Made by a program: the position numbers and the translations under genes | Notes under the pieces: generated by a model | The model's database searches: none | Seen by the model: the letters and a program-made list of their open reading frames with translations, nothing else | Told to the model about the DNA's origin: nothing | In this document: one piece after another, positions 39,209-41,317 of the stretch | Position numbering within the stretch: the first letter of the stretch is position 1 | Layout: each line of letters begins with the position of its first letter | Assembly: GCA_019057865.1 (NCBI GenBank) | Contig: JAHLWP010000011.1 | Span: 32,674 to 96,673, forward strand | Origin: Promethearchaeota archaeon | Lineage (GTDB): Archaea; Asgardarchaeota; Lokiarchaeia; Sigyniarchaeales; SOKP01 | Length of the DNA stretch: 64,000 nucleotides | Direction of reading: 5' to 3'

Positions 39209-41317
39209 TTACCGATTTCTAAATTTCTTCTTTTTATTCTGACAAGAAGAGTTATTATTGTGATTATTCAAATTTAAAGAATTGTCTCCTAAACTATTAC
39301 AGAAATTGAATGAATTGGGTTGAATATATTTGTCTAAAGGTCCTTTTTCCATAAAAAATTCATTAATATCTTTTTTTATTAGTTTCATTTCTTTTAAAAA
39401 ATCTTTTAGATCTCTAGTATAAAATAATTCATCATTAGATAATCGTGGGATATTATATAAGGAAATTATATCATATGTTTTATTATATTCCAAGATTTCG
39501 AAAAATTGATTTCTATATTCATTATTAAGTTCAATAAATTCACAGAGAAGATTAGGACTAATTATTTTTGTATTTTCAGGAAAGCGAATCCTATTATCTT
39601 CAGGTAAAGGTATTGTTTCTGTTTTAAAAAACCAATTATTTCCTATTATAAAAAGTACAATATTTGGATGTTCGTATTTTAAAATCTTTTTTACAATATT
39701 TTCAGTAGAAAGATTATTTGTATAATCAAATTGAAATGAAATGATGCAATCTAGGTTTTCTTTATTTATTCCGATTTGCTGAGCTAAATTACTATTATTT
39801 TTAAATTGTTGTTCTAAAAATTTTTGATCTTTAACATTTAAAATCAACCCATCTGCTCCCTTTAAACTATTGGGATAAATTCTTGGTTCGGATATATATA
39901 TAACCTTTTTCTCATCATAAAAAAATTTAGTTAATAAATCATTTATTCTTGAATGTGACAAAGTTCCAGAAATTCTTGAATCATCGCTCGGAAATCTTTC
40001 TCTATATTTTTTATAATTATCCTTAAATATTTGTTTCAAGGCTAAATTATTCACAACTGTATGGGACACATTATGTTTTATTGCGATATCTAGTTGACTA
40101 AGATCGAAGGAATTTAAAATATCAAACTTAATTTGTTCCTTAACTTCTTCAGACACCCAATCCTTCGCTTCTGGCCATTTTTCACGATAAATGTCTATAT
40201 TACCTTGATAATTTTCTCGTGCAATTCTAACCACAGTCATCACGCCTAAATTTAGATTTTCTGCAATTTTTGTCAAAGAGTCAGGAGTCTCCTCAGTAAT
40301 TCTCTCAATAATTTGACATCTGATTTCTTCAGTAATTTTGTAAACAGATGATGGCCATTTCATGCGATATTCTTCTAATGTAAAAATTTTTTTCCCTAAT
40401 TCACGAACATAAGAAAGAGAAACGTTATTTTTATTAGCTATAATTGTCAAAGTATCTGGATTAGGTTTACTTAAATCTTCAATTATTATTTTTTTAATTT
40501 CATTAGAAATTGGAGGATTTTTTATTGGCCATCTTTCATGATATTCTTCAGGTGTAAATAATTTTTTTGCCCAACGCATTACAAATGATCTAGAAAGTCC
40601 TATTTCAGAAGAAATGTCTCTCAGAGTATTTGGATTTTCAGAAAATAATTCATCTAACATACTATCCCAAGTTTCACTAGGTTTTTTTAACCATTTTGAA
40701 TTTGTTGTAGGCCATCTCGTTTGATAAGCATTTTTAGAAAAAATCTGCAAAGCTATTTTTATAACTGTTTTTACTGATACACCATTGCTTTTTGCTATAT
40801 TACTCAAAGAATCTGGTGGATCTTCCCTAAGTTGTTCTTGAATTCTATTTTTAACTGAATGCGTGATAATATTTCTAGGAAAACGTTTATAAAATTCTTT
40901 TAAATTGTTATTAAATTCTGAATTTAAGGCGATTTTTCTAATTAAATGTGGATTTAAAGAAATACCAATTTTAATTGCTTTTTTAGAAATATCTCTCAAA
41001 GATAAATTTGTGTTTAAAATGTTATCAATTGTAAAATTAAAGATTTCGTTATTTTTATTAATTTTATTTAATATTACTAAAAACTTTTGTTTTCTAGATA
41101 TAGTTAAATCCAATCCATTAACCCAATCAATAAATTTCTGACTAATAGTTAAACCGCTGTTAGGCTTTCTTTTTGTCCCTTTATGAAAGTGTAAATATTT
41201 TTTAAACCAAGTTTGTATTTCTTTATTCATCAAATTCAAATATTTTAATTGAGGGCTTTTAAATTCTCGTTTAAGATCTGAATCGCCTCGCTCATTATTC
41301 ATAATCTTTTTACTCAA
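39209..41317 (-). CDS. Tandem HTH-repeat protein with putative C-terminal PD-(D/E)XK-like nuclease domain
   Basis: Six ~58-62-aa repeats, each with an HTH-like core and ending Y..R(W/F)P. C-terminal SEPRIY...ADGLI...FDYT. Confidence 0.65.
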   Translation of the reverse strand: MSKKIMNNERGDSDLKREFKSPQLKYLNLMNKEIQTWFKKYLHFHKGTKRKPNSGLTISQKFIDWVNGLDLTISRKQKFLVILNKINKNNEIFNFTIDNILNTNLSLRDISKKAIKIGISLNPHLIRKIALNSEFNNNLKEFYKRFPRNIITHSVKNRIQEQLREDPPDSLSNIAKSNGVSVKTVIKIALQIFSKNAYQTRWPTTNSKWLKKPSETWDSMLDELFSENPNTLRDISSEIGLSRSFVMRWAKKLFTPEEYHERWPIKNPPISNEIKKIIIEDLSKPNPDTLTIIANKNNVSLSYVRELGKKIFTLEEYRMKWPSSVYKITEEIRCQIIERITEETPDSLTKIAENLNLGVMTVVRIARENYQGNIDIYREKWPEAKDWVSEEVKEQIKFDILNSFDLSQLDIAIKHNVSHTVVNNLALKQIFKDNYKKYRERFPSDDSRISGTLSHSRINDLLTKFFYDEKKVIYISEPRIYPNSLKGADGLILNVKDQKFLEQQFKNNSNLAQQIGINKENLDCIISFQFDYTNNLSTENIVKKILKYEHPNIVLFIIGNNWFFKTETIPLPEDNRIRFPENTKIISPNLLCEFIELNNEYRNQFFEILEYNKTYDIISLYNIPRLSNDELFYTRDLKDFLKEMKLIKKDINEFFMEKGPLDKYIQPNSFNFCNSLGDNSLNLNNHNNNSSCQNKKKKFRNR
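39989..41040 (-). repeat. Six degenerate protein-level HTH repeats
   Basis: Repeat ends FYKRFP, YQTRWP, YHERWP, YRMKWP, YREKWP, YRERFP; cores such as PDSLSNIAKSNGVSVKTV. Confidence 0.85.

Follow-up and report, generated by a model that had tools for sequence, protein, structure and literature searches.

Free-standing (intronless) homing endonucleases have been described in phages, among them SegF, SegG and MobE of T4 and F-CphI of a cyanophage (PMC6083498), and the WHO nucleases of Torulaspora and Lachancea yeasts, which are intein-related zinc-finger fusions, reside at FBA1 (PMC7282813). In R2Bm the catalytic lysine of the nuclease sits on helix 2, and its motifs read H, E, PD, D, K..KY and G.W (PMC4838377; PMC10499050). 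A separate modular DNA-binding array joined to a C-terminal nuclease of PD-(D/E)XK fold is the design of TALE nucleases, zinc-finger nucleases and type IIS enzymes of the FokI type, and it is likewise the predicted design of the Asgard archaeal protein described here. [quoted passage not shown]

The gene occupies positions 39209..41317 (minus strand) of the window, by which we mean the whole 64,000-nucleotide stretch of a Promethearchaeota archaeon contig that was analysed, and it is intact in near-identical assemblies. Read from a TTG start the ORF comprises 702 aa; copies in the databases begin at the ATG at 41302 (697 aa), which is the likely start. All of the following parts lie on the minus strand. 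An N-terminal helical module (aa ~25–83; 41069..41245) co-occurs in homologues with the first of the helix-turn-helix (HTH) units, and some homologue matches cover aa 22–150 alone, that is, this module and unit 1. A unit profile and AlphaFold2 place unit 1, a longer variant, at aa 84–147 (40877..41068), unit 2 at aa 148–203 (40709..40876), unit 3 at aa 204–264 (40526..40708), unit 4 at aa 265–322 (40352..40525), unit 5 at aa 323–382 (40172..40351) and unit 6 at aa 383–443 (39989..40171), bearing out the six tandem HTH units which the earlier note had recognized in the sequence. Each unit is closed by RFP, RWP or KWP (aa 147, 203, 264, 322, 382 and 443). The five recognition-helix strings quoted in that note (VSVKTV, LSRSFV, VSLSYV, LGVMTV and VSHTVV) are present in the protein, and unit 1 contributes a sixth, LNPHLI. 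In the AlphaFold2 model a four-helix pattern, in which a further helix caps a three-helix HTH, is repeated six times (pLDDT 87.5), and the units have no fixed mutual packing (pTM 0.37). Pfam returned weak matches to HTH families, every one under its cut-off, and a single 18-residue LysM match slightly above its cut-off that overlaps an HTH unit. The array is beyond chance, because the six-unit profile, searched against the genome, recovered the arrays of two paralogues (E 8e-28 and 6e-25; next match E 0.1) and, once iterated, about 250 units in homologues.

Among homologues the number of repeats per ORF with the nuclease ranges from 1 to 9, with 11 in one ORF ending at a contig edge, the low counts possibly coming from fragments. 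Of the 56 unit columns, variability is greatest at positions 1 and 2 of the recognition helix (3.86 and 3.66 bits), one helix-1 column (3.72 bits) ranking between them and position 5 being high too (3.56 bits). Both kinds of variation, in repeat number and at the recognition helix, had been anticipated from the sequence, as had a likeness to TALE nucleases with one module per sub-site; the last of these gained no support as far as a code is concerned. Orthologues at one site retain unit-specific signatures, and in four same-site orthologues identity was 0.57 at recognition positions vs. 0.56 at other variable positions (p = 0.48); because the two classes of position behave alike, we claim no code and regard the units as divergent HTH beads. 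TALE repeats are near-identical, 33–35 aa long and read one base with two residues, whereas the units of the Asgard protein are divergent, 56–64 aa long and not packed in a fixed manner. In other family members this nuclease is combined with treble-clef zinc fingers, or a DEDDh exonuclease is added to it. The design of the family, as far as sequences reveal it, is modular, and a TALE-like code is absent from the evidence.

Structure comparison and conserved motifs delimit, behind the array, a nuclease domain of PD-(D/E)XK fold (aa 444–655; 39353..39988, minus strand), and nearly all structural matches over more than 100 residues are PD-(D/E)XK nucleases, in agreement with the tentative assignment made earlier. 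The motifs G..SH (aa 451–455), EP (aa 477–478), ADG (aa 488–490) and FDYT (aa 530–533) are joined by two that had gone unnoticed, K544..K547Y548 and G559..W562. H455 is placed on helix 1, D489 on strand 2, D531 on strand 3 and K544..K547Y548 on helix 2, with E477 and G559..W562 in addition. That assignment had been left tentative for want of an evident canonical lysine; this was correct for strand 3, which reads D-x-T and not (D/E)xK, but a lysine does exist, moved to helix 2 (K544), and its R2-like layout resolves the doubt. A lysine on helix 2 is an accepted variant within the PD-(D/E)XK superfamily. D489, D/E531, K544 and Y548 are present in 43 of the 43 homologues that have both repeats and domain (query included), H455 and K547 in 42 of the 43. 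We therefore predict, from this conservation and from the model, that D489, D531 and K544 catalyse cleavage. Downstream of the domain, a degenerate PIP-box-like motif, KGPLDKYI (39320..39349, minus strand), which takes the canonical form Q..L..YF in 11 of 42 relatives, may dock onto PCNA, and the low-complexity 36-aa tail that follows (39212..39319, minus strand) is probably read-through of an older stop, relative P0044 ending directly after the PIP-like motif.

In a derived clade of 31 members (100/99) the catalytic residues have been lost together and repeats are missing; most of its members share a single locus, where they form the tail of large LamG proteins. This co-loss serves as an internal control for a catalytic role, short of proof of activity. 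The persistence of that clade at a conserved locus is also what favours reading our protein as a DNA-binding regulator or scaffold whose nuclease-fold domain does not cut, together with ADG standing here in place of PDG and with the fact that a shared fold shows no function. However, every catalytic position is present in this copy, and the acidic pair and the lysine are held in all repeat-bearing homologues across 30–40% identity, and we consider a non-cutting protein very unlikely. The catalytically dead domain itself forms the conserved C-terminal tail of LamG/DUF2341 proteins of 1000–3000 aa encoded beside a gene for a Ras-family GTPase, and has apparently been domesticated; the LamG-tail copies (L123–L127 and others) are convergent on the orthologue of C5:117507–119063 of the source genome (G000). 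The window contains four genes for Ras/Rab-like small GTPases (17648–18205, 26975–27511, 28459–28989 and 36441–37001). Such genes, and a homologue named from a Promethearchaeota MAG, identify the host as an Asgard archaeon, probably of Loki type.

R2 retrotransposon chains matched the domain with Z 5.0–5.7 over 124–128 residues (rmsd 3.7–4.0), which are modest scores, R2 lying within 1 of Bax1, McrC and Uma2-type proteins and one HerA-DUF chain reaching 6.5; we regard the motif pattern as more specific than the Z-scores. The restriction-like endonuclease (RLE) of R2-type non-LTR retrotransposons (PMC4838377, PMC10499050; PDB 8iby, 8gh6, 9nl2) and the Asgard domain share the fold and the order of motifs, with H on helix 1, E between strands 1 and 2, D on strand 2, D on strand 3, K..KY on helix 2 and G..W after strand 4. 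The Asgard G..W is one residue longer than the G.W of R2, the P of PD varies, with this copy reading ADG and not PDG, a helical insert of ~30 residues separates the two aspartates, and identity is 13–16%, with Z tied with that of other PD-(D/E)XK proteins. Further, the Asgard ORF and element have neither a reverse transcriptase nor a CCHC finger and are not a non-LTR retrotransposon. Searched by sequence against Pfam, PDB sequences, PHROGs and PADLOC, the nuclease domain gave nothing significant; leads in the ESM Atlas were all under 0.9, with TM up to 0.53, and Foldseek with both models gave no match at E ≤ 0.001.

We found 116 relatives among 1.84 billion representatives, and in the literature no published description of the family. 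Its domain is present in 33 of the 54 genomes of the host's family vs. a single one among the 196 others sampled from the phylum, at 0–10 copies per genome, with five in the source genome. Motif-intact copies occupy more than 25 loci (manual count), beside leuS, hisS, CTP synthase, Hrq1, a GH57 enzyme, a vWA gene and others, and each nuclease clade retains its own site across genomes or genera. Scattered, clade-specific sites of this kind are, by analogy, the pattern of free-standing homing endonucleases (PMC6083498). The patchy distribution would also suit a stand-alone enzyme of defence or conflict, gained and lost at insertion hot spots, whose HTH units recognise a site in foreign DNA (from a virus, a plasmid or a competing element) and which cleaves there; the fold is common to McrC, Can2, NucC and restriction enzymes, and the moxR junction gathers many unrelated inserts. 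Yet there is no PADLOC match and no adjacent methyltransferase or partner gene, and defence leaves both the clade-specific host-gene sites and the altered gene ends unexplained, which makes it unlikely in our judgement. The lack of an adjacent DNA methyltransferase, the neighbours being moxR and a glycosyltransferase gene, equally sets the gene apart from type II restriction-modification, FokI-type systems included.

At least eight genes of the source genome share a block of ~1.2–2 kb that encodes an acidic N-terminal region and is joined to tips that differ from gene to gene (G000 C49:190–2250 and contigs C77, C83, C80, C23, C48, C69, C63 and C58). These blocks have 74–92% DNA identity to the copy in G012, the closest genome; two carry the family nuclease, one with an added DEDDh exonuclease. 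A fifth, divergent paralogue of the nuclease (G000 C58:29232–31871; 880 aa, with N-terminal CPY..C and K..NY) is present in G012 too.

Convergent with the nuclease gene, and 14 nt from its stop, lies the MoxR-type AAA+ gene that we take as the likely target (38262..39194, plus strand). The empty site which the earlier note presupposed, moxR followed directly by a 663-aa gene (48719..50710, plus strand), was seen in 12 of 23 relatives; the remaining loci hold unrelated inserts, and relative G011 has, at the same moxR site and in the same orientation, a remnant of another subfamily of the nuclease. A second intact family member downstream of moxR was absent from the 23 genus loci, 12 extended regions and 80 metagenome loci. 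G012 has about 210 nt in place of the 14-kb block that runs from moxR to the GNAT genes (38209–52132 of the window). The moxR/663-aa pair is present in only half of the genus, and the moxR module is accessory. A GNAT-like acetyltransferase gene at 50976–51816 of the window is apparently split into two overlapping frames.

Over codons 10–245 the moxR product is 86–91% identical (aa) to common alleles and 79–85% to distant ones, and over codons 246–292 the relation is reversed, at 32–45% to common alleles vs. 45–64% to distant ones. AU tests reject alternative groupings (p 0.027–0.048 for the 5' part and 0.006 for the 3' part), except that for the 5' part a history shared with variant-end alleles survived one test (p 0.245). 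From allele comparison and these tests, the last ~65 codons of moxR, from codon ~246 onward (38995..39194, plus strand), look foreign, MoxR C-termini being variable in general (61–67% among relatives). Just before the switch, in the region of the last conserved moxR motif where we place the putative cut site (38940..39000, plus strand), this allele has a one-codon deletion. No stranded old moxR end was found in the source genome. At the moxR site of relative G024 (C28, L143; 6010–9802), a complete variant-end moxR is followed by two inserted genes and then by a stranded, broken moxR 3' part of the common type, which is the anatomy of a replacement end without a nuclease.

A tract of low diversity across near-identical assemblies, a candidate footprint of conversion or of a sweep, covers 38761..41430. 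SNPs in four such assemblies amount to 0.35–0.43% over 38996–41302 vs. 1.1–4.1% in the flanks, the tracts being non-independent through recombination, so that p-values are overstated; moxR SNPs end at 38760 in two of the four, and within the nuclease gene nonsynonymous SNPs are at least as common as synonymous ones. Such a tract would be expected if the moxR end and the nuclease had recently been copied as one block into different backgrounds. A parallel case is the vWA locus, where identity between G012, in which the nuclease is present, and the source genome drops from 95% to 80% with some 100 codons of the gene left, and where the source genome carries a 29-nt intron-like insertion at the switch point. 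Considering that similar variant moxR ends occur in five other genomes with no intact nuclease adjoining, and that the moxR module is accessory, a selfish nuclease with some other target could have landed in a hot spot whose divergent moxR end reflects ordinary recombination. We find this highly improbable, as the low-diversity tract spans moxR end and nuclease gene together and the same switch in a neighbour's end recurs at the vWA site. In the vWA (CoxE-like) gene (G000 C37 ~37967–37995), a frame-breaking insertion of 29–33 nt lies at the same codon in three genomes (compare L094, L242 and L245); its removal mends the frame, its flanks pair, and two of the three genomes also have the nuclease. 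It is a candidate tRNA-type micro-intron at the likely target of the vWA-site nuclease.

Beyond the nuclease gene lies a sugar/inositol-lipid gene cassette (42130..48530, plus strand) encoding a glycosyltransferase, a 400-aa protein of unknown function, an NTP-transferase, a CDP-alcohol phosphotransferase and inositol-1-phosphate synthase. The suggestion that the nuclease mobilises this neighbouring island, nuclease and cassette moving as one 9.5-kb insert, draws on the position of the nuclease at the left edge of the DNA missing from the empty site and on the co-conversion of flanking DNA by free-standing homing endonucleases, e.g. T4 SegG. However, the cassette occurs at 92–94% identity in other genomes at other loci without the nuclease, relative G068 has the start of the cassette at this very moxR site, again with the nuclease absent, one strain lacks 41495–43318, the low-diversity tract ends near 41430, and the locus shows no convincing terminal repeats or target duplication. 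Nor was there a convincing tRNA, Rfam RNA, terminator or excess of promoters. The independent occurrence of the cassette largely refutes movement as one unit, to which we give very little credence. Given this independence, the stretch missing from one strain and the absence of the moxR module from G012, the nuclease is a separate occupant of the same hot spot.

Cumulatively, clade-specific sites, empty alleles, the divergent moxR end and the low-diversity tract support the homing-type selfish role which had been suggested for this gene, here in the form of an endonuclease that replaces the end of its target. Weighing against this reading are the lack of a stranded old moxR end, the variant ends in genomes that have no intact nuclease there and the absence of a second intact copy at moxR in other species. 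In the proposed mechanism, the six HTH units would recognise an extended site in an unoccupied moxR allele, close to its last conserved motif at about 38940–39000, and the C-terminal domain would nick or cut there by means of D489, D531 and K544, the lysine of helix 2. Recombinational repair would then copy in the nuclease gene together with its own divergent, resistant moxR end, and this replacement end would leave the host with an intact moxR gene. We infer DNA binding, cleavage, the cut position and the alternative of nick or double-strand break from sequence and models, and we propose resistance of the element's own moxR allele on the grounds of its divergent, probably foreign 3' end.

An endonuclease of this kind would resemble the free-standing phage enzymes as an optional gene between conserved genes, with empty alleles, a presumed target in the adjacent gene and an altered allele of its own, and the small intron-like insertion at the switch point of the vWA gene, the likely target of a family relative, recalls collaborative homing. 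It differs from them in residing on a cellular archaeal chromosome and in its long regular HTH array, and its PD-(D/E) domain with the helix-2 lysine is of a type that does not appear by name in the list of six families given in PMC6083498. With WHO (PMC7282813) it shares a position at the 3' end of a host gene, an end that it apparently swaps for its own version; unlike WHO, it combines an HTH array with a PD-(D/E) domain, its family has many targets, and neither a stranded old end nor a cluster is present at moxR.

What emerges from these observations is an apparently large family of selfish nucleases, carried by the prokaryotes most closely related to eukaryotes and built on a catalytic layout that is best known from R2; through it the origin of the RLE domain can be put to the test. 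As a tentative and rather doubtful extension, the Asgard enzymes might be the prokaryotic sister group of the R2/LINE RLE, the nuclease of early eukaryotic retrotransposons having come from an Asgard homing element, with the HTH units as exchangeable readers; if so, such units could be assembled into new nucleases for long sites. Since each clade has a defined neighbour gene, both the putative target alleles and the putatively resistant ones are available for assay, and the dozens of pairs of array and target could show whether HTH units swap, in which case the family would represent a natural, single-chain modular nuclease.
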